A stretch of DNA of 64,000 bases from Escherichia phage vB_EcoM_G2285, in the sequence record MK327933.1, one strand, 5' to 3'. The position numbers and the translations under genes were made by a program. Below the pieces are notes generated by a model that worked only from the letters and a program-made list of their open reading frames with translations, searched no databases and was not told where the DNA came from. Position 1 is the first letter of the stretch, and each line of letters begins with the position of its first letter. Of the stretch, positions 2,520-33,703 are shown in pieces.

Positions 2520-3620
2520 TTACGCTGTGAAGATTTTATCCCACATCGCAACAACTGCATCTCGATTATACTTCTTCCATACTGCTTCAGCACGTTTAAC
2601 TCGAGCTTCGTATGTGTCAGTGAATTCTAATACAGCTTTTGTGTAAAGCGCAACTACTTCTTTCTTAGGAGTAGAGGAATCAATTTCTACACGCACAGTA
2701 TCTGGGTCGTATTCGAATGTCGCATGAGGATAATCCTTAAAAACTAACTGGATTACAGGGACACCTTTAGAGATGGCTTCAATAGAACTATTCTCTACTG
2801 TACCTGTGTCAGGACACGTATTAATAAGTGCTTTAGCTGTTTTAAGACGTTCCATGATTTCACTGTGTGGAGCATCAATAATAACAGGATATTTAGCTGG
2901 TGGTGCCCATTTACTAGGACAATAACCAATACCATTTTCGCCTAGTGCTTTAATCGCTTCAAGAGCAACATCAGTACGACGCATTTTAGTGTCATAACGT
3001 TGTGCACTAATAATCAGATCAGTCGCCGGAAGAACTTCAGGTTTCTCATTCAAACAAATAACCGGATAATCTTCGGCTTCAAACAACGGATTTGCTCGCC
3101 AATAATCATAATCGATTTTGTCAGTCAGACCTGAAGTCATATAACAATATTTGCGTTCAAATTCACGGAAGGCTTTAGTAGGAGCATAACTCTTACCACC
3201 ATTCTTATGAATTTGAATAGTCTGGTCCCAAATTTGAACAATGCCGCGAGATACCGGTTCAAATGGTGTTGCCATAAAATTCTTATGAACTTTAGAGAGA
3301 CCTGCGTCTTTAATTGCCTGAACGGTTAGTTTAGTCGGTTCCATAGTAACAACAAAATCGTATTCATGGATGCCGGCTAGTTCAACAATCTTACGAGCCA
3401 TAGTATAACTCATACCTAGACTGAATTTAGTCAGATGACCAACAGGATGGTGTGTAACTTTCCAGTCACCAAACGTGTCATTATCAAAGCCGATATAATC
3501 AATATCAGCACCGATGGACACAAGATATTTCAACACATTTAAATGTACTGCTTCAAGACCACCTTGTACACGGTCAGGATTAAATGGGACCGCACGAGAT
3601 GGGATAAACATAACTTTCAT
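2520..3620 (-). CDS. GT-B (GT4-like) glycosyltransferase, candidate DNA sugar transferase
   Basis: 366 aa; C-terminal E-x7-E-type motif TVENSSIEAISKGVPVI typical of GT4 donor-binding domain; N-terminal MKVMFIP..GG..A Rossmann start. Confidence 0.65.
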   Translation of the reverse strand: MKVMFIPSRAVPFNPDRVQGGLEAVHLNVLKYLVSIGADIDYIGFDNDTFGDWKVTHHPVGHLTKFSLGMSYTMARKIVELAGIHEYDFVVTMEPTKLTVQAIKDAGLSKVHKNFMATPFEPVSRGIVQIWDQTIQIHKNGGKSYAPTKAFREFERKYCYMTSGLTDKIDYDYWRANPLFEAEDYPVICLNEKPEVLPATDLIISAQRYDTKMRRTDVALEAIKALGENGIGYCPSKWAPPAKYPVIIDAPHSEIMERLKTAKALINTCPDTGTVENSSIEAISKGVPVIQLVFKDYPHATFEYDPDTVRVEIDSSTPKKEVVALYTKAVLEFTDTYEARVKRAEAVWKKYNRDAVVAMWDKIFTA

Positions 3621-14920: not shown

Positions 14921-15442
14921 TCAGTAACCATTATCCTGGCGTTCAAAGTTGTGTTGGTTTTTCAAGTAATACAGTTTAAAGATTTCTTCAGCAGAAAGAC
15001 CTAGACCTTGGAACATATTCAGAACAAAGTGGAGGATATCAATCATCTCGAATTTAATTTCAAGCTGGTCTTCAGGGGACAGTTCATCGATACGACGATT
15101 ACGATATTCAGCATGTTGTGCTTTCCATGGCTTCCATACAGAGCTAGCGGCTTTTTCACCATTGCTCATACCACCAAGTGAAGTCAGCAGTTCACGGAAT
15201 TCATCATCAATATAATCTTTCTGATTACGCAACCAATCAACAACATCACCAGCAGTGGCCAATTCATCAGGATGTTTGTTATGTTCAGGCTTGTCATTTG
15301 CCAGACGAACCTGTAAAGATTTCTGCATATCAAGCATTACCTGCAGTGGGTCTTTATCTTCGTGAATCAGAGCATTAAAATAAGCTTCTTCTGCTTTATC
15401 AACACCAGAAATAAGTTGTGAACATTCGTTAAAGTGCGCCAT
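14921..15442 (-). CDS. 56: dCTP pyrophosphatase (dCTPase/dUTPase, MazG-like)
   Basis: MAHFNECSQ.. and C-terminal LYYLKNQHNFERQDNGY resemble T4 gp56. Confidence 0.8.
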   Translation of the reverse strand: MAHFNECSQLISGVDKAEEAYFNALIHEDKDPLQVMLDMQKSLQVRLANDKPEHNKHPDELATAGDVVDWLRNQKDYIDDEFRELLTSLGGMSNGEKAASSVWKPWKAQHAEYRNRRIDELSPEDQLEIKFEMIDILHFVLNMFQGLGLSAEEIFKLYYLKNQHNFERQDNGY

Positions 15443-21705: not shown

Positions 21706-22047
21706 TTAAAAGAATTTAAATTTTTTCTTGGTTCGTTCATTAAAAGCTTGTTGTACTTGCATTGTAACACATTTTTCAACGTGTGGTGCAAGTTCTGCTT
21801 TTCTGTCCTGGTCAAGAACTGCAAAGTCCATTACGATTTTACCATCATCCCAGTCTAGTTTTGTAATATAGACTATATGATGGGAACCGTCTTCAAGTGT
21901 AATCAGAATCTCTTGAATGACATTTTCCATTGCTGAACGGACAATTTTAAGAGATTCATTAAACACTCGTTCTTTGCGAATGTCCTCCCCTTCCGAAGAA
22001 GGGGAGTCATCAACGATTTCTAGATTTAAATCATCGAGATTATTCAT
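21706..22047 (-). CDS. 40: gp40-like protein (head vertex assembly chaperone position)
   Basis: about 113 aa between uvsX and gene 41; positional call. Confidence 0.5.
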   Translation of the reverse strand: MNNLDDLNLEIVDDSPSSEGEDIRKERVFNESLKIVRSAMENVIQEILITLEDGSHHIVYITKLDWDDGKIVMDFAVLDQDRKAELAPHVEKCVTMQVQQAFNERTKKKFKFF

Positions 22048-23212
22048 CGAAATCTTCCATTTCGTCAAGGTCGTTTTCTATATCTGCTGCAGACGGAGCA
22101 TCAGAAGTTTTAACCGGAACTTTAGTTGTTGCTTTGCAATTAATAAGGTCATTAACAGCGTCATCAACTTCTTTAATAGAAGAGATAGCACCTAGTTTAT
22201 ATTTAGTTTCAATTGCATCTCGGAAAGGTTTGTGTTTAAACAACGGCCCCCAGAATTCTACACAATCAGTAGCTTTAGCACGCCATGATTTTTCTTCACG
22301 AATCATTTCGCCTGTTTCTTCGTCAAGGAATTCACGAGCATACCACCCGGCTTTAGGCTTAACTACAAAACCAATTTCAGTTGCCATTTCTAACAAGCCG
22401 CTGAATGGGTCGATACCACCATCGAAATTAACCGTGATCGGGAAAGTAGATTTTTCTTTAACAGTACGAGATTTTTCTGCTTTCAACGTGAAGTCATAAC
22501 CGGTCAATTCTGTACCTTCTTTAACCTGACGTTTAGAGATAAAGAATACAGTGTTAGCAGAGTAAAGAATACCTGTACCACCACCCATAATCTCTTTAGG
22601 ATATAGTCCGCCGATTTCCATTGCGGTATGGTTAATTGCAACACACGGAATATCTTTAATAGTCAGATACGGGGTCACAATGCGGAACAGAGATTTAAGT
22701 GCCTTAGCACGAGACATATCACCTACAACTTTCTCGTTCAACGCATCTTCGGTTTCTTTCTTAGATGCAGTATTACCGATTGAATCGATAAAGATAATAA
22801 CTTTATCACCCCGTTCAATCGCGTCAAGCTGATTAGTCATATCAACTTTAAGTTGTTCGACGGATTGAATCGGAGTATGAACTACACGGTCTAAATCAAC
22901 ACCCATTGAACGAAAATAAGATTCTGAAGCACCGAATTCTGAGTCATAAAACAAACAGATTGCATCTTTATATTTCTTCATATATGCTGCAACCATAGTT
23001 AGTCCAAACAGTGTTTTAAAATGTTTAGAAGGTGCAGCAAAAATAGTTAAGCCTGATTGCAACCCGGCATTCAGTGCACCACCTAATGCAATATTCAACA
23101 TCGGAATACGAGTAGGGACTTCATCACGATTATTAAACAGCTTAGACTTAGTCAAGTCTGCAGTCATTTTAGAAGTAGAAGCTTTAATCAGACGAGATTT
23201 TAAATCAGACAT
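22040..23212 (-). CDS. uvsX: UvsX recombinase (RecA-like)
   Basis: 390 aa; MSDLKSRLIKASTSK.., GPSKHFKT Walker A; colinear with recalled T4 UvsX. Confidence 0.95.
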   Translation of the reverse strand: MSDLKSRLIKASTSKMTADLTKSKLFNNRDEVPTRIPMLNIALGGALNAGLQSGLTIFAAPSKHFKTLFGLTMVAAYMKKYKDAICLFYDSEFGASESYFRSMGVDLDRVVHTPIQSVEQLKVDMTNQLDAIERGDKVIIFIDSIGNTASKKETEDALNEKVVGDMSRAKALKSLFRIVTPYLTIKDIPCVAINHTAMEIGGLYPKEIMGGGTGILYSANTVFFISKRQVKEGTELTGYDFTLKAEKSRTVKEKSTFPITVNFDGGIDPFSGLLEMATEIGFVVKPKAGWYAREFLDEETGEMIREEKSWRAKATDCVEFWGPLFKHKPFRDAIETKYKLGAISSIKEVDDAVNDLINCKATTKVPVKTSDAPSAADIENDLDEMEDFDE

Positions 23213-23310: not shown

Positions 23311-23859
23311 TTAACGAGCCCATTTGATGATTTCTGTAATCAAATCATTACGTTCGCTTGCATTAAATCCTATAACTTTGTTAGCACCATCATGATTAAG
23401 TAATTGATACGTTTGGATTTCGTTATGAATTGCAAACTCTTCAAAATATGAAATGACTGTATTAAAACCGAATGAAGACAAAGTAATAAGGTCGTCTTCA
23501 AAACTTTCAGTCATTTCGTTACGTGTTAAAATAATTGTGAACACATCATGGTTTTGGCAAAGACGAACATAATCCTGTTCATAAACGTCAAGAACCGAGT
23601 CCGCATCTTGTCGAATACGTCCATAAACCCAGTTACTAATATATCCACGGTCTAACAGATAAATCTTAGTAGGGTCTAAATAATTCAACATCGTTTCGAA
23701 ACAACCAACTTCATTTCGAGACTTAACATCGAAACGTCCATCAACTGTTCGTTTAGGGAAATCAATCTTTACATATCTTTCACTAATTTCCATTATGTCA
23801 TTAATGAAAGTTGTTTTACCAGCATTATCCGGGCCATCTACTAAAATAATTTTAGCCAT
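23311..23859 (-). CDS. P-loop nucleotide kinase-like protein (dNMP/thymidylate-kinase fold)
   Basis: 182 aa; Walker A VDGPDNAGKTT, downstream LLDRGY (DRY-like) motif. Confidence 0.5.
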   Translation of the reverse strand: MAKIILVDGPDNAGKTTFINDIMEISERYVKIDFPKRTVDGRFDVKSRNEVGCFETMLNYLDPTKIYLLDRGYISNWVYGRIRQDADSVLDVYEQDYVRLCQNHDVFTIILTRNEMTESFEDDLITLSSFGFNTVISYFEEFAIHNEIQTYQLLNHDGANKVIGFNASERNDLITEIIKWAR

Positions 23860-23860
23860 T

Positions 23861-24760
23861 TTATTCCTCGATTACGACATCTTCATATTTAGGTATATTA
23901 TACGGTGAAGAAATTAAAGCATTAAAGTAGATGAACTCACCAAGACCTGGATGGAATACTTCTTCAGGATTTTCGAAATATTGAATCTTCGGACGTCCTT
24001 TAAGAATTTGATAGTACTCAGTTTTAGTTGGTTTAAAAATTCGAATCAGCGCTTCTTCAGGATACTTATTTCTGTCGAAGCTATTATTTGGATCGGTTAT
24101 ATAAAGCGGTTGACCTAATTGAATTGCACATTCAACCACTTGTTCAAAACGATAGCATGGGTCACTAATTCGAAACGGATGAAAAATACCATCTAGATGA
24201 ATAGGAGCCAAATCACCTACAAGACGCTGCATGATGGAAGGACGTATAACTTTCTGCGTTACGATAATCTTATTACCATCGGCACCAGCGTTAACCAGCA
24301 CTTCTTTTTGACGTTCATTCAACACAGTAGTTTGAAGTGAACGATTAACCGACAACATGTCGGTTTTTAAGAATTCGTCAATATAAAAACGTGGTTTATT
24401 AGGGTCTGCCGTGATATTGAAATTGAATTCCACATCAAAAGCGCCGTCATATCCAGTGATATCTGTGATTAGAAAATCACAATCATAATAAGCAATTAAT
24501 GAATCAACCACAAATTCATTTTCAGACCAGAAATATTTACGAGTGTTATACGCGTTATCTTTATACCATAATGGAACAAACTTAAATTCCGGGAAAAGAC
24601 GTTCGCATTCTTTAATATCAGATGCATTACGTGGATATGTAATCACATCACCTGGATTAGCACGGTGCAAATGAAGTTGGAAGTTGCCATCCTTAAGGAT
24701 AGCATACTGTCCAGTTTCATAAGACCGCATACTCAAGATTGGTACGCGGAAAATAGCCAT
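23861..24760 (-). CDS. hypothetical protein in the position of T4 beta-glucosyltransferase
   Basis: 299 aa; tightly coupled to flanking genes; no recognised motif. Confidence 0.5.
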   Translation of the reverse strand: MAIFRVPILSMRSYETGQYAILKDGNFQLHLHRANPGDVITYPRNASDIKECERLFPEFKFVPLWYKDNAYNTRKYFWSENEFVVDSLIAYYDCDFLITDITGYDGAFDVEFNFNITADPNKPRFYIDEFLKTDMLSVNRSLQTTVLNERQKEVLVNAGADGNKIIVTQKVIRPSIMQRLVGDLAPIHLDGIFHPFRISDPCYRFEQVVECAIQLGQPLYITDPNNSFDRNKYPEEALIRIFKPTKTEYYQILKGRPKIQYFENPEEVFHPGLGEFIYFNALISSPYNIPKYEDVVIEE

Positions 24761-25476
24761 TAGTCAAGGAATCCTTTAACATAATCAAAATCACGTTCAA
24801 ACACATGGGCACTTACCATGGTATGAGTATAATCACCAACTTCTACACCACATTCGTTAGCGATATAATGAAGTAATTTTCCTTGGAGATAAAAATCCAA
24901 CTGCATAACAACAGCACAGTTCTGGGAACGCATATGACAGTGGGTATAAAGCTTACCATCACGAATATAATAAGTCACTGAGTCAGTACATGGATATTCA
25001 AGCGTTTCGTCCGAATCAAGCAAAGCCTGATCAGAACTTTCTAGAATTTGGAACACAACTCTTCGAGAGTTAGGCTTCTCTTTAAGTTCTTTTAGAAGAG
25101 CTGGTAATTGGGCCGCAATGCGAGGACCATAGAAAGTGTTGAAGTTTGCCGGCAAAACATCTGATTTTGGTTTAGAAATAAATTTAGCGACATTAGGATA
25201 TGCCTTAAACGCTTCTTCTGCGTTGGTACCACCAGAAATCATAAACTTCCAGAAGTCTTCGGCATATTCATAAGAGATGCGGTTAATACGTGGGTCGGTC
25301 ATTTTGAATGATGATGGAGTGTCAACAACTACTGTCATAGACCCAATTTCATTACAACGTCCAATACGAGAATCAGTTACGAATTCCGGGTTTTCTAAAA
25401 TTTCACGATTGACTGCTTTAAAGGCGGTTTGAAAATCTGCGGCTTTGATATATTTCATTGTGTTATGTTTTCCCAT
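24760..25476 (-). CDS. thymidylate-synthase-family pyrimidine hydroxymethylase (gp42-like, divergent)
   Basis: 238 aa; NSRR, YPCTDS (catalytic Cys), HMRSQN blocks of TS/dCMP-hydroxymethylase fold; N-terminal half unlike recalled T4 gp42. Confidence 0.6.
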   Translation of the reverse strand: MGKHNTMKYIKAADFQTAFKAVNREILENPEFVTDSRIGRCNEIGSMTVVVDTPSSFKMTDPRINRISYEYAEDFWKFMISGGTNAEEAFKAYPNVAKFISKPKSDVLPANFNTFYGPRIAAQLPALLKELKEKPNSRRVVFQILESSDQALLDSDETLEYPCTDSVTYYIRDGKLYTHCHMRSQNCAVVMQLDFYLQGKLLHYIANECGVEVGDYTHTMVSAHVFERDFDYVKGFLD

Positions 25477-25505
25477 GTTTACCTCAATACAATTTATTAT
25501 ATACT

Positions 25506-25530
25506 CAATTCATAAAGCTTATTTGAATTT
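25506..25530 (-). promoter_or_regulatory. middle-promoter-like element (MotA-box-like AAGCTTTA, 11 bp, -10 TATAAT)
   Basis: minus AAGCTTTA-TGAATTGAGTA-TATAAT then GAGGTAAACATGG. Confidence 0.4.
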
Positions 25531-25653
25531 CTTAGCGATGTTGATATAACGTAAAGCTTCAGCATCAATACTTCCAAGAACACTATGAAGAAATGCATCA
25601 GCGTAGTATTACAATTGAACAGGTTCTTTAATCACTTTAGCCGCTTTGGTTTT

Positions 25654-25677
25654 AAAAAGGCCCATCAGGGCCTTTTT
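25654..25677. terminator. bidirectional rho-independent terminator
   Basis: perfect palindrome AAAAAGGCCC-ATCA-GGGCCTTTTT, T-runs on both strands. Confidence 0.7.
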
Positions 25678-25754
25678 AAGAATTTGTTCGTTAGTGTTCA
25701 GTTTCGTAGTCAAAATCTCTTCATTAAGTTGGTGGTTAAAAGTTTTTCTAGAAA

Positions 25755-26915
25755 TCATTCCGGGTACCTCAAAGCGTCATCAGAGTTAGTTATATCAATA
25801 ATAGATATAGAGTTTTCTGCTAACCCGGTTTTAGATAATTGACGTTTATAATATCTTTCACAATATGTACACGTCGTCCCGCAGATTTCATTAGCACAAT
25901 CGAAATCTGGATGTCTGAACCACCTTTTTTCTAAAAAGCCATCTAACAAAGAGGTTTCAATATTTACTGTATGTGAAAACTCTGTCTCATTTTCAAGAGT
26001 GAAAATGGTCTCTAAAGGCTTCCACAGTTCTAACAAATTACCTTCAAACTTTTCAGAAGCATAAGCTTCAAGAACTTTCAAAATGTAGTCTGTGCTACCT
26101 GTACGTCCTGAAACTTTGAATTGAGTGATACCAATATCATTATAAAGTTTCAAATCTTGAGGACGAACAAAACGAGTTCTCAACCAGTTAAATGGATCTG
26201 TATCACGAGCTTTAATACAGTGCTGCATTGGATATCCATTTAAAGATTTGGCATCATCAGCTGTAACATCAGTACTATGGAAAATATAGCAAGAGTCACG
26301 ATAACTACAATGTGTTGTATACCCTTTACCAGCATTAGAACAGAACTCATTTACAAGAACTTCAAATATTATATTGTTCTTATTGCAAAACTCTGCTGCA
26401 CGCTTCAGGAAAGAAACTGAACGGTTCTTATGAATTCCACAGCAGACCTTTTTGATATTATATTGGTCATGCAAGTATTTGATTTGAGTTACAGCATCGA
26501 CATGTAGAATTGTTGAAACTTCAATCTCAATATCTTTATTGACTTCACGAACAATTTCCATAACAACAGGGTTAGCGATAGTAATACGCCATACGCCTAT
26601 TGACCAAAGATACTGAACATAATCCTGAATAGCTTTCTTCTTCCACTCAACTAGTTCTCTTTTTGAACCAGGATTTATCGTGTTGAGTGTATAGTTAAAG
26701 CAAATACCTAATTCGTTACAACGTTTAACGTAATCTTCTAACATCTTTTTGTCAACGTCAGGAAGCCTAAAATCAGGTCTGGCTGCTACAAAAGCCATTT
26801 CTCTTGTAGAGCCGTATACTTCGTTTATCAAGCTATTAGGATAAGTTTTATTGAGCTCTACGATTTTATCAAGAAGAGCTAAATCAAAATTCGTTCCGAT
26901 TTTAAAAGTATTCAT
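25755..26915 (-). CDS. Cys-rich enzyme of unknown function (weak peptidase-U32-like resemblance)
   Basis: 386 aa; C-terminal C-x4-C-x3-C-x2-C cluster plus VCCG, CSNAG, HCSYRDSC. Confidence 0.5.
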   Translation of the reverse strand: MNTFKIGTNFDLALLDKIVELNKTYPNSLINEVYGSTREMAFVAARPDFRLPDVDKKMLEDYVKRCNELGICFNYTLNTINPGSKRELVEWKKKAIQDYVQYLWSIGVWRITIANPVVMEIVREVNKDIEIEVSTILHVDAVTQIKYLHDQYNIKKVCCGIHKNRSVSFLKRAAEFCNKNNIIFEVLVNEFCSNAGKGYTTHCSYRDSCYIFHSTDVTADDAKSLNGYPMQHCIKARDTDPFNWLRTRFVRPQDLKLYNDIGITQFKVSGRTGSTDYILKVLEAYASEKFEGNLLELWKPLETIFTLENETEFSHTVNIETSLLDGFLEKRWFRHPDFDCANEICGTTCTYCERYYKRQLSKTGLAENSISIIDITNSDDALRYPE

Positions 26916-26972
26916 TTTTTTTGCATCTCACGTTAATTGACGCGATGGTTTTTGCAGGTCTTACTTAAATTA

Positions 26973-27374
26973 TTATAGATTCGGTTTATACGATTTAAAT
27001 GTTTCGAATTCGCCTTTATTCATAAGAGCTTTGAATTCGTCAGGACGCATAGCTTTGTCGTCGATAATCCAATCATATACTGGTTTATGTGTTAGCAAAT
27101 TATGGTACTTCAAACCAATGTTTTCCAAGTTCTGAATCAGACTTGGGAGAATGTCAATTGCTATACGACCAGGACCTACTGACTTCATACCGCGAGCAGT
27201 GTAAAGCGTTATGGTATGCCCTGCATCATACAGGGCATTAATGGCAGACACCATTTCGACGTCAGGTTTGAAGTTCACGTAATCACGATTGTTATTCCAC
27301 TCTGTTATACAATCATCGACATCAAAACAAAGATTAAGCATGTTTTCTACACGGTGCATTAGATTCGTTCCCAT
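26973..27374 (-). CDS. HAD-superfamily phosphatase
   Basis: 133 aa; motif I LCFDVDDCIT (DxDx[TV]) near N-terminus; alternative start 27359 overlaps upstream stop. Confidence 0.6.
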   Translation of the reverse strand: MGTNLMHRVENMLNLCFDVDDCITEWNNNRDYVNFKPDVEMVSAINALYDAGHTITLYTARGMKSVGPGRIAIDILPSLIQNLENIGLKYHNLLTHKPVYDWIIDDKAMRPDEFKALMNKGEFETFKSYKPNL

Positions 27375-29044
27375 TGATGAGTGATATCGCCACCGATTGG
27401 ACGATAGGAAACACCAGTTTCTTTATCAGTTAGTACCCATTTACCAGGATTTTTTGTAATCAGAGTAGCCGTTACAGGTTCTGCTACGTCATAACTAATA
27501 GAGCCGTCCTGAAGTACACGGCCCATATTACGTAATTGCTTAGTCAGAAGTTCCATACCTTTATAATATGCGGCTACCGCTTTAAGTGGATTATTCTTAA
27601 AATAACCACCTAATGCAATCCAGATAATTGCCACTGCCAAATGATGATACTCGTTAAATGAACTCATCTTTCCATATTTGTAAACTAATGGATTGATGTT
27701 AATAGTCACATTACAAGTTGTTTCATCAATAGTAAACTGGCCCCAGGTCGGATTAGCGTTGAATTCATCATAACCTGAAACAGCATAAAGCACTTTAGCT
27801 TCATCATACAATTTTGGCCCGTAAATCTTGGTTTCGCCAAAATATCCACGAGGGTCGATAAACTTGACTTCGCCGTTATCAGTAATCATAGTATTACTGA
27901 AGTTCGGGTCACCATGAATAACAGAGTACTGTCCCTGAGAACGGTTATGATAGCGAATAAGATGTTCTAAAGCTTGTTTCAGCATTGGCTTCAGACGTCC
28001 AATCTTAGTGTAGTTCACATGTGTGATTTTACCAAATGAATCAATCAATGGTTGAATGCTTTCACAACGATCAATAACTTTCGTATAGAATTCTTTAGTG
28101 AAATCACGACGAACAGTTTCAGGACTTACAAAATAAGTGTCTGTGCTGAATTTCAGTGCATCTAAAATTGCATCAACAATTTGTGGACGAGCAAGACTTG
28201 ATTTGGATTTAATATATTCAAATGCCGGCTTACCTTTAATGCGTTCCATTTCAAAGTTATTTTCATTAACAGAAACTAACTGAGGAACTGAATCTGATTT
28301 CACTTTAAGATACCATGAAATCTCATCTTTCTGAAGAGCTCGACCTTGTTCGGTTAATGCGAATTTAGTTACAGTTTCTTCACCAATTTCAACTGCATTA
28401 AAACTACGATTAAGTTCACGAACTTCATGGGCCTTTTCAAGTTTAGGCATATCACCAAGGTCGATGATATTCATAAGCTCTGATTTATTGAATGCGCCGC
28501 TGTAAAGGAATTCTACGAAATCACGTCCTTTGCAGTATTCATGAATTTCCTCATCAGTAGAACCCATGTAGAATTCCCAGTCTTTGAACTGATAAATTCC
28601 TACAACATTACCACCTGTTGAACCTACGTTAGTGATATTTTCACCGTCGAAATTATATCGACATTCGTCACCCTTAACATAGATTGCGTTAACATTCCAA
28701 GACCATGAACCAAAATCTGGAATAATATCACACCAGTTAACAATTACGTTATGGCCGTCTAAATCTTTGTGTAATTTAGCAAGAGCATAAGCAGAACCAT
28801 ACGCTTCATCAACTGTACGAATAGTCACATTGAACCCTTCTTGCTCACAATAAGCTCGAACAGTTTCAGCAAATTTTGAATGAACTACTACAATAATTTC
28901 ATCTGCGCCAAGGTCAGAATAAATTGTATACAAATTGCTCAGAATAGTGTCTTGTTTATAGTTAACAAGCACCTTGGGAATATGATGCGTTATTGGATAT
29001 AAACGAGTTGCCAGACCAGCACCAAGAATAACAGCTTTTTTCAT
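27359..29044 (-). CDS. bifunctional sugar-phosphate nucleotidyltransferase / APH-like kinase
   Basis: 561 aa; N-terminal ILGAGLATRL NTP-transferase motif; C-terminal VIHGDPNFSN..IDPRG kinase catalytic-loop-like motif. Confidence 0.6.
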   Translation of the reverse strand: MKKAVILGAGLATRLYPITHHIPKVLVNYKQDTILSNLYTIYSDLGADEIIVVVHSKFAETVRAYCEQEGFNVTIRTVDEAYGSAYALAKLHKDLDGHNVIVNWCDIIPDFGSWSWNVNAIYVKGDECRYNFDGENITNVGSTGGNVVGIYQFKDWEFYMGSTDEEIHEYCKGRDFVEFLYSGAFNKSELMNIIDLGDMPKLEKAHEVRELNRSFNAVEIGEETVTKFALTEQGRALQKDEISWYLKVKSDSVPQLVSVNENNFEMERIKGKPAFEYIKSKSSLARPQIVDAILDALKFSTDTYFVSPETVRRDFTKEFYTKVIDRCESIQPLIDSFGKITHVNYTKIGRLKPMLKQALEHLIRYHNRSQGQYSVIHGDPNFSNTMITDNGEVKFIDPRGYFGETKIYGPKLYDEAKVLYAVSGYDEFNANPTWGQFTIDETTCNVTININPLVYKYGKMSSFNEYHHLAVAIIWIALGGYFKNNPLKAVAAYYKGMELLTKQLRNMGRVLQDGSISYDVAEPVTATLITKNPGKWVLTDKETGVSYRPIGGDITHQWERI

Positions 29045-29085
29045 GTTGAAGTCCTCATTGGTAAGTAGGAGTATTGTACACTATT

Positions 29086-29229
29086 CTAGTTAAAGCATTC
29101 ATACTTTGCTTGTAGTCCAATCATAATCCATCCAATCACAAGTGTTGGAATCATTACCGGAGCCGTTAAGCTCCAGTAGATAGTCATGAAAAGCATCAAT
29201 AGTAAAAGTCCTATTGTTATTGCTTTCAT
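29086..29229 (-). CDS. 47 aa hydrophobic membrane peptide, absent from ORF track
   Basis: hand translation MKAITIGLLLLMLFMTIYWSLTAPVMIPTLVIGWIMIGLQAKYECFN; ATGA overlap with upstream stop. Confidence 0.4.
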   Translation of the reverse strand: MKAITIGLLLLMLFMTIYWSLTAPVMIPTLVIGWIMIGLQAKYECFN

Positions 29230-29861
29230 TGTTCGCCTCGTAACATGGCACCTAGTGCACCGCCTGGATGGAACTTAAGGAAGTCATTAGAGGTAAATCC
29301 ACGTTCAGACGAAAGGTTGATAGCAAACGTATCGATAAGCGCTAACAACAATGTAGTTGACATCGTCGGAGCTAAAGAGTTCTCGTCAACTTCTACCGCG
29401 ATACCGGTACAGAACGTATAATCAAAAAGAGCTTCGTATTCTTGTGGAATGTCTGGGTTACAATGCAACAGAATCTGTTTGACGTTCGGACGAATCATTT
29501 TAAGATGCTTAGCCACGCCTATCATTTCTTCAGTCTTACCAGAACGACTGATGTGAACTAATACATCATTAGGTGCAATAAATCCTGCATCACCGTGAGA
29601 ATAATGCCCAGTGTTCAAGTACATACTCGGGATACCGAGTGAAGCAAATGTCTCAGAAGCTTTAGTTGCGATATTAGCATTCTTACCAACACCTGTAATA
29701 ATTACTCGGCTTTCATAATTACTAAGTCCAGGGCGTCGAAGAGTTTCTAGAATAGCATTATAACGAGCAGGGTTTTGACTAATTACTTCGGCCATAGTGG
29801 CCAAAGAAGAAGCTTGTTTTATGATTGCGTCAATAGCGATAGTAATAGGAGTAGTTTTCAT
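29226..29861 (-). CDS. SIS-domain sugar-phosphate isomerase (arabinose-5-phosphate isomerase-like)
   Basis: 211 aa; ITGVGKNANIATK, HGDAGFI, ISRSGKTEE, APTMSTT, FHPGGALG match KdsD/GutQ SIS-domain blocks. Confidence 0.7.
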   Translation of the reverse strand: MKTTPITIAIDAIIKQASSLATMAEVISQNPARYNAILETLRRPGLSNYESRVIITGVGKNANIATKASETFASLGIPSMYLNTGHYSHGDAGFIAPNDVLVHISRSGKTEEMIGVAKHLKMIRPNVKQILLHCNPDIPQEYEALFDYTFCTGIAVEVDENSLAPTMSTTLLLALIDTFAINLSSERGFTSNDFLKFHPGGALGAMLRGEQ

Positions 29862-29901: not shown

Positions 29902-30905
29902 TCAAAAATCGAACATATCGAACAGAGATGCTTTCTTCTCGTAATCGAGTTTCGCTGCTGATGTGAATCCTTCAAGTGGTTTAATAAATGTCTTCTCAAG
30001 GAGAACAGTGTAGTCCATCCAATGAAGTACATCGTCTTTAATTAAATCTGTGATTTCAGTACCAGAAGGCCATGCGATACATTTATCACCGAATGGGTTT
30101 CCTTCACGTAAAGGCAGAACATATACTTTTTCACCTTCTACAACTTGCGGTGCATCGATATTACCTTTGATAGCCCGGTTATACGTCAGAATTCCACGAA
30201 TATGGAACGGGCATTTAGGACCAGGGAATCCACCGACGTCATATTTAGCAATGTTATTCGCAGAAGATACCGACGCGATGCTAATATAATTCAATTGACG
30301 GAATTCTTTTTCAAACTCTTTAAAATATTCTTGTAATGATTCTTCGCCTTCCTGAAGCATACGACGAATACATTCCTTAAGAGCTTTCTGTACTGCTTTA
30401 GGAGTCGAAGATTTCTGAGTCTCTAGACCCATGATTTTAAGCTTAGGTTCAGCGTATCTGGTTCCTTCCATATCCCACACGTTTAATGCATAACGTTTCT
30501 TACCAGTCCAGAATCCACCAATACCTTTAGAACCAAGCGGAGGACCAGCAATAGCTTCTCGGTCCATGAACATCAAATGTTGTTTATTGTTCATGTATTC
30601 ACACATTTCACGGAAACCTCTATCAATAGCTGGTTCCATACGTTCACGTGCAAACTTATCTAAGAAGTCTACCCAATGGTTGGTATCACGGAATTTAGAT
30701 TCACCAACCTTATCAATAATTTTATCTGCAGATACGTAAATGGAGTCTGTATCACCATAAAGAACGAAAGCTTCACCTTCTGTACCACAAACTTCATTCA
30801 GATATTCATTAACTTTACGTTCAATCCACTGTAAAGCCATTTGACCAAATGTTGTGATTGCAGTAGCATTACGCAAATCGTAATAACGGAACCAAACGTT
30901 ACCCA
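29902..30905 (-). CDS. 43: DNA polymerase gp43, cistron B exon 2 (palm/thumb, YGDTDS)
   Basis: translation from GNVWFRYYDLRNATAIT through YGDTDS to ..FDMFDF matches recalled RB69/T4 gp43 C-terminus; 5' boundary set at inferred splice site. Confidence 0.85.
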
Positions 30906-31137
30906 CATTATGTTCGACTGAGGTCGTTAATCTCAGCCCGGAATTATATCCAGCTGCATGTCGCCATGCAGAGCAGACTATATCATCATCTTTATAGATG
31001 CTATGCGCTTCCACCCACTTGGGCGTACTCCTTTCGGATAGTCGTTGCACGTTCCTCATAGAGGCTTCGCTCAGGATTGTCTACTAGAGATGTCCCCTGA
31101 ATTCACATAGTTTAAAGTGCGCCGAGTTATTTGGTTA
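30906..31137 (-). ncRNA. group I intron (td/nrdD-like, ORF-less, 232 nt) in gene 43
   Basis: interrupts motif B codons (..LYGAL | GNVWF..); core elements CTCTAGTAGACAATCC and GATATAGTCTGCTCTGCATGGCGACATGCAGC; starts TAA after exon U, ends ..CATAATG. Confidence 0.75.
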
Positions 31138-31306
31138 ACGCACCATACAGACTATTAATAAGCAATTTACGGTTAATCTGAGCCGTATTACCTGCTACTT
31201 CAGCCAATTCGCAGTTTTTAAGATGTTGTTCTAAATCAGCTTTGCTTAAGGACTTGAGATAAGAAATTTCATCTTGTGAAAAGTCTTGAGTGTATGTTAA
31301 ATTCAT
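31138..31306 (-). CDS. 43: DNA polymerase gp43, cistron B exon 1 (motif B)
   Basis: ATG overlapping HEG stop (TAATG); encodes MNLTYTQDF..NTAQINRKLLINSLYGA, the polymerase K-x3-NSxYG region. Confidence 0.7.
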
Positions 31307-32127
31307 TATATTTTATTCCTACAGTTATCAAAGTGCCAACGTTTCATACCAGATAATATACCTTCTTTACCACAGTGCGGACACGTTGCTTTAATCTCTT
31401 TAGCTTTAGCCCAGTATTCTTTCTTAGAGTCTGAAAGGGCCTTATTATGGGCTTCCGAATTGGTTTTGCCTAATCTTGTTTTAACTATATTAGGATTCTC
31501 TGAAATTCTTTGCTTCATCCTAGAAGACTGTTTAGAACGTTGTTCTTTCGACCAGCCATCAGATAAAACTTTCTTTTGTTCTTCAGTTTTGGTTGTACCG
31601 AAGAGATGGGATTTATTTTTAGAATAGTATTCTTTGAGACCTATAGATTGTTTTAACGAAGTTTCAGCAGAATGCTTTGTTCCTATTTTATTTTTACTTG
31701 CTACAGCCCAATTGGCTGCTGCTATGGCTTTATACTTTTCAGGATTTTTGGCTATAGTGATTTTAATAGAATCTGAAACCTTTTTAGCAATCTCTTGGGA
31801 CTTCATAGGATTTGGTAGATTTAAAGAATTTACATAATCCCAACCGCCTTTACCACCAGGATTAAGATTATATGTATCATTTCTTTTTACAAAATCTTTA
31901 TCTACAATTTTAGCTTCAAGGGCATAAGCTTCATCTTCATTATCGAATACTTCCAAAATGGTCTTTTGGAGATTTTCTATACCGTATTTTTCAACGGCTG
32001 CTTTAACAACAGGTCCAGAACCGCGGTAAATATCGTTTTGATTAGACTCATCACACTTATGAACACCTACATAAATTTTACCATTAACGACATTAGTAAT
32101 TTGGTAAACAGTATAAACAGTTTTCAT
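31306..32127 (-). CDS. GIY-YIG homing endonuclease inserted within gene 43
   Basis: VYQITNVVNGKIYVGV GIY-YIG motif; C-terminal CPHCG..MKRWHFDNC zinc finger; start set at ATG with SD GGAGG. Confidence 0.75.
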   Translation of the reverse strand: MKTVYTVYQITNVVNGKIYVGVHKCDESNQNDIYRGSGPVVKAAVEKYGIENLQKTILEVFDNEDEAYALEAKIVDKDFVKRNDTYNLNPGGKGGWDYVNSLNLPNPMKSQEIAKKVSDSIKITIAKNPEKYKAIAAANWAVASKNKIGTKHSAETSLKQSIGLKEYYSKNKSHLFGTTKTEEQKKVLSDGWSKEQRSKQSSRMKQRISENPNIVKTRLGKTNSEAHNKALSDSKKEYWAKAKEIKATCPHCGKEGILSGMKRWHFDNCRNKI

Positions 32128-32153
32128 AATATCCTCCATTAGTTGATAAGACT

Positions 32154-32183
32154 ATAATACCACATCCTTGTGGTATTGTAAAC
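32154..32183 (-). promoter_or_regulatory. early-type promoter for the intragenic endonuclease
   Basis: minus GTTTAC-N18-TATTAT then AGTCTTATCAACTAATGGAGGATATTATG. Confidence 0.45.
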
Positions 32184-33703
32184 TATTTTGAAGCCAAAAT
32201 CTCTTTAATTATTTCAGCATTTCGCTGTGCAGCCAACATGTAGCGCTTATGTTCTTTACGCTGCAAGAATACCTTAGTGATTTCTGTTGGAATCACACCA
32301 TCACGGTCTTTATAATACATCATGCCGTTAGGAGAGCAACTGTACACATCTGAAGGACGTTCGGCGATTGCGTTAATATACTCATGCAGTGGAGCTACTT
32401 TAAACGTTCCTGCTATTGTTTCCGGGCTAATATTCACTTGGCGAATAATACTTGGATACAGAGATGTAAGGTCGAAACTCATTACATATTTGTATCGATT
32501 TGGAATAGGTTCCTTAACAAAAGCGCCAGGATAAGGTTGAACCGGGTGAGAACGACCTTGTGGAATCACCTTGTTCTGCTCTTTAAGGCTATTAAAAATA
32601 ATAGCATCCCATGTTTTAATTGGGCTAAACACAGATTGAATCTGTATCTTAGCATAATAACCCATGTCCAAGCTCAAGTTGATGAACTGACGCTTAGCAT
32701 CAATTTGCAATACACGATACACGTCGATAATGTTATAAGAAATATATCGTTGGTGATTGCTTTCACGAAGCTTAGAAATAGGGCCGTCATATTTCAGTTT
32801 ACCAACGTTCAATTCAAATTCTGAAATGTAATCCAGAGAATATGACGGTTGATTGGTAAAAGAGAATTTTTTGTAAAGGTCAATGTAATCAAGAACAGAG
32901 ATACCGAACAATGTAATGATTTCACGAGAACCATACATGTTTTCGATAACTTTAACACGAGTTTTACGATGTGGTGACAACCGTTTTGCTGTGGATTCGC
33001 CAAAAATATTCTTGATTCGGTTATACACATATGGAATATCAAATGACTCAACGTTCCATCCAGTCAAAATGACAGGAGTTTTCTGTTGCCAGAAGTTGAG
33101 ATATTCCATCAACAATTCTTTTTCGTTATCGAACGGCATATAAATGATTTTATCGATAATTTCAGATGGAACTTCATCACCGCCTTGTTCTTGAAGCTTA
33201 GCAGCGATTTCAATAGACCATTCTTCTACATTACCATACGGAGAATTCAATAGATCAAATACATAGAACCTGTCGTCAATTGAGTCATAATGGGTGATAG
33301 CATCAATCGGATGTTTTGCTTGTGACGGCTCAGGGAACCCATCCGGAGATGTTACTTCGATGTCGAAGTTAGCCACACGAATTTTTGTATGGTCGTATTT
33401 GATTTCATAGTTATAAGTGTCAGACAAATACGCCAATTTGAAATCGTCCATGCCAAGTGCTTCAAGTCCGATATCTTCCATGCGTTTAATCCATTGGGAG
33501 GCATCACGCATATTAGCGAACAGCTTACGAGTACACGGCTTACCGTAGATATCGAAATATTTCGTAGCCTGACTTTCTGGACAATGAGCAAACAGTGATG
33601 GTTTATATTCTACTTCACGAGTACGTTCACGGCCATTAGAATCGATGTAACGTTCAAAAATTGAATCACCAATCTGTTCAACCGTTAAGTAAAATTCTTT
33701 CAT
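32183..33703 (-). CDS. 43: DNA polymerase gp43, cistron A (N-terminal and 3'-5' exonuclease domains, motif A)
   Basis: 506 aa; MKEFYLTVEQIGDSIFERYID..FDIEV..YNIIDV..DLTSLYPSII matches recalled RB69 gp43 N-terminal half; ends at in-frame stop. Confidence 0.9.
   Translation of the reverse strand: MKEFYLTVEQIGDSIFERYIDSNGRERTREVEYKPSLFAHCPESQATKYFDIYGKPCTRKLFANMRDASQWIKRMEDIGLEALGMDDFKLAYLSDTYNYEIKYDHTKIRVANFDIEVTSPDGFPEPSQAKHPIDAITHYDSIDDRFYVFDLLNSPYGNVEEWSIEIAAKLQEQGGDEVPSEIIDKIIYMPFDNEKELLMEYLNFWQQKTPVILTGWNVESFDIPYVYNRIKNIFGESTAKRLSPHRKTRVKVIENMYGSREIITLFGISVLDYIDLYKKFSFTNQPSYSLDYISEFELNVGKLKYDGPISKLRESNHQRYISYNIIDVYRVLQIDAKRQFINLSLDMGYYAKIQIQSVFSPIKTWDAIIFNSLKEQNKVIPQGRSHPVQPYPGAFVKEPIPNRYKYVMSFDLTSLYPSIIRQVNISPETIAGTFKVAPLHEYINAIAERPSDVYSCSPNGMMYYKDRDGVIPTEITKVFLQRKEHKRYMLAAQRNAEIIKEILASK

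Follow-up and report, generated by a model that had tools for sequence, protein, structure and literature searches.

We analysed 64,000 nucleotides of Escherichia phage vB_EcoM_G2285 (record MK327933.1; this whole stretch is called the window), which begin at the rIIA end of the genome and carry, between uvsX and gene 43 (23311-29861), an island of eight tightly packed minus-strand open reading frames (ORFs) together with a ninth small, interrupted one (Table 1). A reading made earlier from the letters alone (the sequence-only reading) had counted seven genes here and listed eight, all of which are present in the ORF list; the ninth, a homolog of RB69 gp49 in the 280-nt gap between a thymidylate synthase (TS) homolog and the gene of a Peptidase_U32 (U32) protein, had been overlooked. 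Junctions between the genes are mostly overlaps of 1-4 nt or gaps of 1 nt, which fits a co-translated operon. In base composition the island does not stand out from its surroundings, and a promoter and terminator scan of the island returned sites no more numerous than in shuffled sequence.

Table 1. Island genes, their flanks and partner genes elsewhere in the window (aa, amino acids).
Feature	Coordinates	Strand	Counterpart or remark
Predicted second DNA arabinosyltransferase	2523-3620	minus	RB69 ORF003c / gp3 homolog; between the rIIA and topoisomerase genes, outside the island
dCTPase gp56	14924-15442	minus	97% identical to RB69 gp56; dUTPase_2 1e-6; outside the island
uvsX (flank)	22040-23212		
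P-loop nucleotide kinase, 182 aa	23311-23859	minus	RB69 gp45 homolog
Presumed GT-B DNA arabinosyltransferase 1, 299 aa	23861-24760	minus	RB69 gp46:47 homolog
Predicted 5-hydroxy-dCMP synthase, TS fold, 238 aa	24760-25476	minus	RB69 gp48 homolog
Interrupted gp49 homolog, 79 codons	25519-25758	minus	ORF as called 25609-25758
Peptidase-U32 protein, 386 aa	25755-26915	minus	RB69 gp50 homolog
HAD-type phosphatase, 133 aa	26973-27374	minus	RB69 gp51 / HY126 AfhF homolog
Kinase/nucleotidyltransferase fusion, 561 aa	27359-29044	minus	RB69 gp52:53 / HY126 AfhE homolog
Hydrophobic peptide, 47 aa	29086-29229	minus	RB69 gp54 homolog
SIS isomerase, 211 aa	29226-29861	minus	RB69 gp55 homolog
Gene 43, C-terminal part (other flank)	from 29902		

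The island DNA is 97.7% identical to RB69 24.0-30.6 kb and has the same gene order, in line with the RB69-type phage that the sequence-only reading had recognised, and its proteins are 92-100% identical to RB69 gp45, gp46+47, gp48, gp49, gp50, gp51, gp52+53, gp54 and gp55. By megablast, the whole 6.5 kb is approximately 98% identical in more than 150 phage genomes, all of them RB69-like Mosigvirus. The window has gp46:47 and gp52:53 each as one ORF where the RB69 record has a split pair, in agreement with the published correction of RB69 sequencing errors. A first proposal for the cluster dates from 2018, and its elucidation reportedly followed in 2025-2026, with Mahler et al. 2025 and He et al. 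2026 among the accounts named. The island is an already known, largely characterised system, with nothing new in itself, and the pathway enzymology that had been taken as open is already in print (Thomas 2018; Mahler 2025; He 2026; Lee 2026). In RB69 DNA, Thomas et al. 2018 (PMC6024577) detected arabinose, and from the module of eight genes that separates uvsX from gene 43 they put forward ORF055c and ORF53_52c as UDP-arabinose genes. The RB69 base was demonstrated to be 5-hydroxycytosine with one or two arabinofuranoses, joined by an ether bond at C5 according to nuclear magnetic resonance (NMR) (Lee et al. 2026, PMC13326640), and arabinosyl-5-hydroxy-2'-deoxycytidine was found in place of deoxycytidine (dC) in RB69 and in the Mosigvirus phage NP by liquid chromatography-mass spectrometry and NMR (PMC13326640, PMC13390438). 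Gene content and near-identity make it nearly certain, in our judgement, that the island is the cluster with which RB69-type (Mosigvirus) phages produce arabinosyl-5-hydroxycytosine DNA, and the near-identity to that cluster likewise bears out the earlier prediction of a DNA-hypermodification module in the T4 glucosyltransferase region. Nothing in the window sequence contradicts this assignment, and the published activities (TS homolog, AfhE/AfhF and DNA chemistry) are carried over to the window because the proteins are 97-100% identical.

The base branch begins with the TS homolog, which matches Pfam Thymidylat_synt (PF00303, 2e-15) and is 99.2% identical to RB69 gp48 and approximately 98% identical to the solved structures 9iqc, 9ir2 and 9iqu (mismatches counted in the printed alignment). 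In E. coli ThyA numbering, its EYPC motif corresponds to L143E and, in ungapped register, RSQNCAVVMQLD corresponds to D169N plus N177D, so that the Asp of T4 gp42 at position 169 is not retained and Asn stands there instead. A 2-residue gap placed by MAFFT blurs this register, D169N/N177D being unambiguous only without the gap, and the assignment therefore leans mainly on the 98-99% identity to characterised proteins. By homology, the protein is a flavin- and O2-dependent synthase of 5-hydroxydeoxycytidine monophosphate (5-hydroxy-dCMP), not a folate-dependent hydroxymethylase, and it was as a hydroxymethylase that the sequence-only reading had taken it. That earlier view, in which a gp42-type dCMP hydroxymethylase yields 5-hydroxymethylcytosine (hmC), arabinose is placed on the hydroxymethyl group, and the nucleoside diphosphate (NDP)-arabinose arises via free arabinose, corresponds to the 2018 interpretation of RB69 DNA (PMC6024577) and is compatible with the thymidylate synthase fold of the enzyme. 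We judge it very improbable: RB69 gp48 yields 5-hydroxy-dCMP, binds flavin and takes the hydroxyl oxygen from O2, as demonstrated by 18O2 labelling (PMC13326640); the NMR data place the ether link directly on C5; and the hydroxymethyl assignment, already refuted for RB69, was explicitly called erroneous (PMC13390438).

The sugar branch agrees with the published pathway, as had been anticipated in the proposal of an NDP-arabinose made from ribulose-5-phosphate by the SIS isomerase, the HAD phosphatase and the kinase/nucleotidyltransferase fusion. The SIS protein matches NCBIfam KpsF/GutQ (3.8e-32) and KdsD (2e-30), Pfam SIS (3e-10) and the structures 3etn (8e-25) and 2xhz (9e-19), is 97.6% identical to RB69 gp55, and consists of a SIS domain only, without CBS domains. 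It is, by homology, a D-arabinose-5-phosphate isomerase that would convert ribulose-5-phosphate to arabinose-5-phosphate, the function assigned in PMC13326640. The fusion protein carries an NTP_transferase domain (8e-10, residues 3-99) and is 98-99.7% identical to RB69 gp53 and gp52, one ORF split by sequencing error. Going by these relatives, its C-terminal half is an arabinose-5-phosphate 1-kinase, which would produce arabinofuranose-1,5-bisphosphate, and its N-terminal half a UDP-arabinose pyrophosphorylase, which would produce UDP-arabinofuranose, activities that were reported for HY126 AfhE as far as PMC13326640 cites them. Between these two steps, the HAD protein, read in the same manner, is the enzyme that would strip the 5-phosphate to leave arabinofuranose-1-phosphate; it matches the EcbF/BcbF capsule phosphatase model TIGR01689 (1.9e-13), is 98% identical to RB69 gp51, has a near-identical solved structure (9iqw, E 4e-87) and a more distant one (1xpj, 1.5e-10), and its true start is probably the ATG at 27359, overlapping the upstream stop codon. 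The sequence-only reading had put the phosphatase before the kinase, via free arabinose. In the published route, as PMC13326640 gives it in citing He et al. 2026, arabinose-5-phosphate passes to arabinofuranose-1,5-bisphosphate (AfhE kinase half), arabinofuranose-1-phosphate (AfhF) and UDP-arabinofuranose (nucleotidyltransferase half); C1 phosphorylation thus precedes removal of the 5-phosphate, and free arabinose is no intermediate. Beside these enzymes, the 47 aa peptide matches PHROG 3610 (unknown function, 1e-26) and is 97% identical to RB69 gp54, and a transmembrane ORF is annotated at the matching position in Klebsiella phage KLB31.

Both GT-B DNA arabinosyltransferases of the RB69/HY126-type cluster are present in the window. 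The 299 aa protein, listed before as unknown, has the GT-B fold and a relative of solved structure, the HY126 glycosyltransferase (single-sequence and profile searches of PDB sequences gave nothing meaningful for it), and it presumably attaches the first arabinose to 5-hydroxycytosine in DNA. The gp3 homolog shows 99.2% identity over 366 aa (tblastn); gp46:47 and gp3 were assigned as arabinosyltransferases in PMC13326640, and the role of gp3 also in PMC6024577. The 182 aa kinase matches the thymidylate kinase family PHROG 761 (4e-45) and, weakly, dTMP kinase in the NCBIfam scan, and is 99.5% identical to RB69 gp45, called "nucleotide kinase" in PMC13326640; its substrate is possibly a modified deoxynucleoside monophosphate. 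The dCTPase gp56 that was said to be retained is indeed encoded. In the proposed pathway, gp56 would return dCTP to dCMP, so that only the modified nucleotide is incorporated; the TS-fold enzyme would hydroxylate dCMP at C5 with flavin and O2; kinases would raise 5-hydroxy-dCMP to the triphosphate, which the phage polymerase would insert instead of dC; and the island GT-B enzyme and its partner outside the island would place one, and then a second, arabinose onto the 5-hydroxyl in DNA. DNA arabinosylated in this manner would block many restriction and CRISPR nucleases. Some points weigh against this reconstruction. The DNA chemistry was measured in RB69 and NP, with the present phage known from its genes; UDP as the nucleotide carrier comes from the literature; and the kinase half of the fusion gives only weak APH/fructosamine-kinase matches, at residues 308-409 and below the cut-off, so that the suggested check of families by profile search held for SIS, HAD, NTP_transferase and Thymidylat_synt and not for this half.

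The remaining enzyme of the island, gp50, was described beforehand as a Cys-rich 386 aa enzyme; it is present, and its family can now be given as Pfam Peptidase_U32 (PF01136, 7e-11), a domain on a TIM barrel. Table 1 of PMC13326640 labels gp50 a "sugar or heterocycle reductase"; the discussion of that paper mentions two other known pyrimidine hydroxylation pathways without homologs of the TS-type synthase, and its text, in which the terms "gp50" and "U32" have no occurrence, never ties gp50 to those pathways. The question of an anaerobic route via gp50 arises because the TS-type synthase needs O2 while E. coli lives largely without it. In a profile comparison, the phage protein matched E. coli UbiU, UbiV, RlhA and TrhP with a probability of 96% (E 4e-9, 203 columns, 20% identity), the alignment covering residues 56-284; single-sequence and profile searches of PDB sequences gave nothing meaningful for it. 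Phage C202, C208 and C232 align with UbiU C169, C176 and C232, three of the four experimentally defined [4Fe-4S] ligands, and ten cysteines, including a C-terminal CX4CX3CX2C, are invariant across 16 U32 homologs. RlhA, which forms 5-hydroxycytidine (ho5C2501) in 23S rRNA, and TrhP, which forms ho5U34 in tRNA, are O2-independent iron-sulfur enzymes with a prephenate-linked oxygen donor (PMC5727448, PMC6599085), and UbiU/UbiV of anaerobic ubiquinone synthesis are likewise O2-independent, iron-sulfur and prephenate-linked (PMC6747719). Our proposal, made from sequence comparison, is that the U32 protein represents a new phage subfamily of hydroxylases, which would use a [4Fe-4S] cluster and prephenate, but no O2, to act on C5 of pyrimidines in deoxynucleotide or DNA metabolism; we hold the chances for and against it to be evenly balanced. 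The substrate may be dCMP, another nucleotide, or DNA. In enterobacterial T4-like phages, such an enzyme would back up the TS-type synthase during anaerobic growth of the host, for instance in the gut; for many phages that infect obligate anaerobes, no other enzyme would supply the hydroxyl decorated by DNA glycosyltransferases; and in several such phages a phage-encoded chorismate mutase or DAHP synthase would feed it. We found no accessible paper that links U32 with chorismate mutase, prephenate or the 5-hydroxycytosine of phages; Mahler et al. 2025 and He et al. 2026 lie outside that scope and may already address the idea.

Genes for prephenate supply accompany the U32 gene in several forms. 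The space between the U32 and TS genes is occupied, in 51 records of T4-like phages from other genera, by a small ORF that encodes an AroQ chorismate mutase (PF01817, 2e-10 and 1e-9, above the cut-off). The other loci are divergent ones with a U32 homolog (individual loci carry L numbers), for which at most 10 kb on each side was covered. Among them, a DAHP synthase-chorismate mutase fusion adjoins U32 in L036, L038, L039 and L040, a DAHP synthase in L007 and L025, and a free chorismate mutase in L042 and L061. Prephenate-supply genes thus stand beside U32 in the 51 T4-like records and in eight divergent loci, in three gene architectures. The DAHP_synth_1 neighbours were also considered as KDO-8-P synthases using arabinose-5-phosphate and were rejected as such, DAHP synthase models scoring 1e-65 to 1e-70 vs 1e-17 for KDO8PS. 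A different phage use of prephenate, CmoA/Cx-SAM carboxymethylation, has been described (PMC12783734); Pfam and NCBIfam scans detected no methyltransferase domain among the island proteins.

In the window, the interval between the U32 and TS genes holds the gp49 homolog, which is 92% identical to RB69 gp49 over 49 aa and has an in-frame TAA at codon 50 (25609-25611). The 29 codons beyond the TAA keep their conservation in the same frame, and RB69 and phiE142 both have an uninterrupted gp49. In other genera, a chorismate mutase occupies this slot or the adjacent one. The possibility that gp49 is a diverged chorismate mutase was rejected: it has no Pfam or NCBIfam match, blastp against a phage chorismate mutase gave E 6.9, and Yersinia-type phages have both genes. 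The terminator scan also pointed to a 14-bp stem with a 4-nt loop on the plus strand within the gp49 coding sequence (TTTTAAAAAGGCCC ATCA GGGCCTTTTTAAGA, with one G-T pair; 25650-25681).

The distribution of the two hydroxylase candidates differs. The U32 gene was found by tblastn in 221 phage records, the genera listed being all Enterobacterales plus Shewanella, which are facultative anaerobes. The TS-type gene was found in 377 phage records, including those of 57 Acinetobacter and 22 Rhizobium phages, among which tblastn found no U32 homolog; with few independent lineages, this host-range pattern is suggestive only. Among 36 divergent, non-T4-like viral loci with a U32 homolog (37-59% identity), 15 have a GT-B transferase homolog, 12 the kinase/nucleotidyltransferase fusion and 10 SIS, and in the stretches covered a hydroxylase-type TS is present at none of them. 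One TS match, in L027, was rejected as hydroxylase-type, being a canonical thymidylate synthase that retains L143, D169 and N177. Two loci, L028 and L033, have the order Tmk-like kinase, GT-B, U32, second glycosyltransferase, DNA polymerase, which would represent RB69's kinase-glycosyltransferase-hydroxylase trio with U32 in the hydroxylase slot. At other loci, the gene preceding U32 encodes dCMP deaminase, or U32 has genes for a deoxynucleotidase, a deoxynucleoside kinase and a dUTPase around it. When one genome was scanned for each GTDB species, only eight U32 loci came up, in Erysipelotrichales, two Lachnospiraceae, a Bacillota metagenome-assembled genome (MAG), candidate division BRC1, Tannerella, Phocaeicola faecalis and Angelakisella; apart from the Bacillota MAG and BRC1, these groups are obligate anaerobes or come from anoxic habitats.

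These neighbourhoods also bear on a role for U32 in the arabinose branch, as a sugar or heterocycle reductase or another sugar-tailoring enzyme. The gene does lie between the sugar genes and the base genes, and 10-12 of the divergent viral loci have SIS and the fusion as well as U32. UDP-arabinofuranose synthesis is, however, complete without U32, and Acinetobacter phages and Dhakavirus make the sugar or encode the pathway without it. Moreover, seven divergent loci pair U32 directly with a glycosyltransferase and have no detected SIS or fusion homolog within the covered 10 kb, and the sugar genes differ among the scanned neighbours: UDP-galactopyranose mutase with a TET-associated glycosyltransferase (TAGT) in L010, TAGT-like or GT47-like genes in L033 and L028, and RmlC in L061, a locus whose U32 has no glycosyltransferase partner. 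In still other loci, U32 stands beside dCMP deaminase and nucleotide kinases, with no glycosyltransferase detected. To our knowledge, no characterised U32 enzyme is a reductase, which also counts against a sugar-tailoring role, and we regard that role as unlikely.

It is quite unlikely, in our judgement, that U32 hydroxylates tRNA or rRNA as TrhP and RlhA do, or is a true peptidase, its place in the island being incidental. Although the characterised nucleic-acid U32 enzymes act on RNA (PMC5727448, PMC6599085) and the family bears the peptidase name, the phage gene sits in deoxynucleotide and DNA-glycosylation neighbourhoods of unrelated phages, and its product is, at 386 aa, shorter than RlhA and TrhP and has a C-terminal CX4CX3CX2C module of its own. 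Of all island proteins, U32 is also the best conserved across T4-like genera, its median identity of 85% exceeding that of the TS homolog (80%) and of the rest (60-71%).

Several observations limit the case for the proposed prephenate-dependent hydroxylase itself. UbiU C193 lacks an aligned partner, since the segment is missing from the phage protein, an invariant C191 lying nearby. No chorismate mutase was found in the window, and its gp49 is truncated; the host would have to supply the prephenate. The Dhakavirus coliphages also lack U32, which makes it an accessory gene, and a TS-type or other hydroxylase located elsewhere on the divergent contigs would lie beyond the 10 kb covered.

Some of the divergent loci show further arrangements. 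A TAGT homolog directly follows U32 in L010 (6001-7997, 4e-8) and in L033 (9998-11973, 1e-4, below the cut-off), and the scanned neighbours of L028, L033 and L010 contained no TET/JBP domain; in L010 and L033, it is as if U32 took the place of the O2-dependent TET enzyme. Two large phage-like contigs that carry a DNA polymerase III alpha gene, L004 (466 kb) and L008, have U32 immediately behind dCMP deaminase; thymidylate kinase and UDG-family genes lie nearby, and no glycosyltransferase was detected within the covered stretch, a hint that these phages may contain a hydroxylated base, uracil or cytosine. In L067 (2987-7080), a cassette consists of a GP88-family protein, a fusion of guanylate kinase and S-adenosylmethionine (SAM)-methyltransferase, a protein of approximately 267 aa and, last, U32; L005 (5135-9098) has the same cassette, with only methyltransferase domains in the second gene. 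L063-L066 and L068 were likened to the cassette by ORF size and order, domain scans having covered L005, L006, L067 and one L064 ORF. For this cassette of anaerobe MAGs and genomes, hydroxylation followed by O-methylation of a nucleotide, to give a 5-methoxy-pyrimidine, is conceivable.

Adjacent to the island, gene 43 (DNA polymerase) is read in pieces (32183-33703, 31127-31306 and 29902-31059). It contains a group I intron on the minus strand at 30954-31170 (Rfam RF00028, 83.6 bits, E 1.6e-20), and just upstream of the intron lies a 277 aa minus-strand ORF (31306-32139) with weak GIY-YIG/SegE-like matches just below the Pfam cut-offs. Approximately 1.3 kb at this interruption is absent from RB69 and phiE142.

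The island places the phage in the arabinosyl-5-hydroxycytosine group, which bears on its use in therapy and on how it resists restriction, CRISPR and type IV systems. The proposed U32 hydroxylase, if real and still unpublished, would be a finding of great interest. Its existence would account for the way in which gut phages, in a habitat devoid of oxygen, manage a base modification that requires O2. Prephenate-dependent hydroxylation, known from RNA and quinones, would then reach DNA precursors as well, and phage chorismate mutase and DAHP synthase genes would gain a purpose. The hydroxylase would also predict hydroxylated, glycosylated and perhaps methoxylated pyrimidines in the DNA of uncultured phages of Bacteroidales and Clostridia.

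Among known systems, RB69 genes 45-55 (ORF045c-ORF055c) and the HY126 Afh genes are the same genes in the same order, with the same flanks and the same partners gp3 and gp56; vs RB69, the window has a nonsense codon in gp49 and, in gene 43, the intron and GIY-YIG-like ORF. T4, with gp42, gp56 and its alpha- and beta-glucosyltransferases, shares the genome region and the logic of dCTPase, TS-fold modification of dCMP, incorporation and post-replicative GT-B glycosylation. It differs in carrying 5-hydroxymethylcytosine rather than 5-hydroxycytosine, in using methylene-tetrahydrofolate rather than flavin and O2, and in drawing on host UDP-glucose rather than on an arabinofuranose made by phage genes. 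The Acinetobacter phages DLP3 and Maestro and Dhakavirus share the TS-type hydroxylase, HAD, fusion, GT-B and kinase genes at 37-79% identity, without the U32 gene and the gp49/chorismate mutase slot, and Dhakavirus also without the SIS isomerase. In Dhakavirus IME341 (L059, 3878-8589), the reduced island consists of the fusion, HAD, kinase and TS-homolog genes plus a glycosyltransferase gene that the record annotates as "RNA polymerase binding protein"; SIS and U32 are both missing.

T4-like phages possess in NrdAB and NrdDG a pair of O2-requiring and O2-independent enzymes. Similarly, in a facultative anaerobe, TrhO/TrhP for tRNA ho5U and UbiIHF/UbiUV for ubiquinone each combine an O2-requiring and an O2-independent enzyme that give the same product (PMC6599085, PMC6747719), whereas for 5-hydroxy-dC the anaerobic arm is as yet only inferred. 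The phage U32 protein resembles RlhA, TrhP, UbiU and UbiV in its PF01136 domain on a TIM barrel, in its aligned cysteines and in the prephenate-supply genes near its relatives; it differs in being only remotely similar, in its extra C-terminal four-cysteine module, and in a presumed deoxynucleotide or DNA substrate instead of RNA or quinone. The product of RlhA is 5-hydroxycytosine, the same base chemistry as in the modification of the island.

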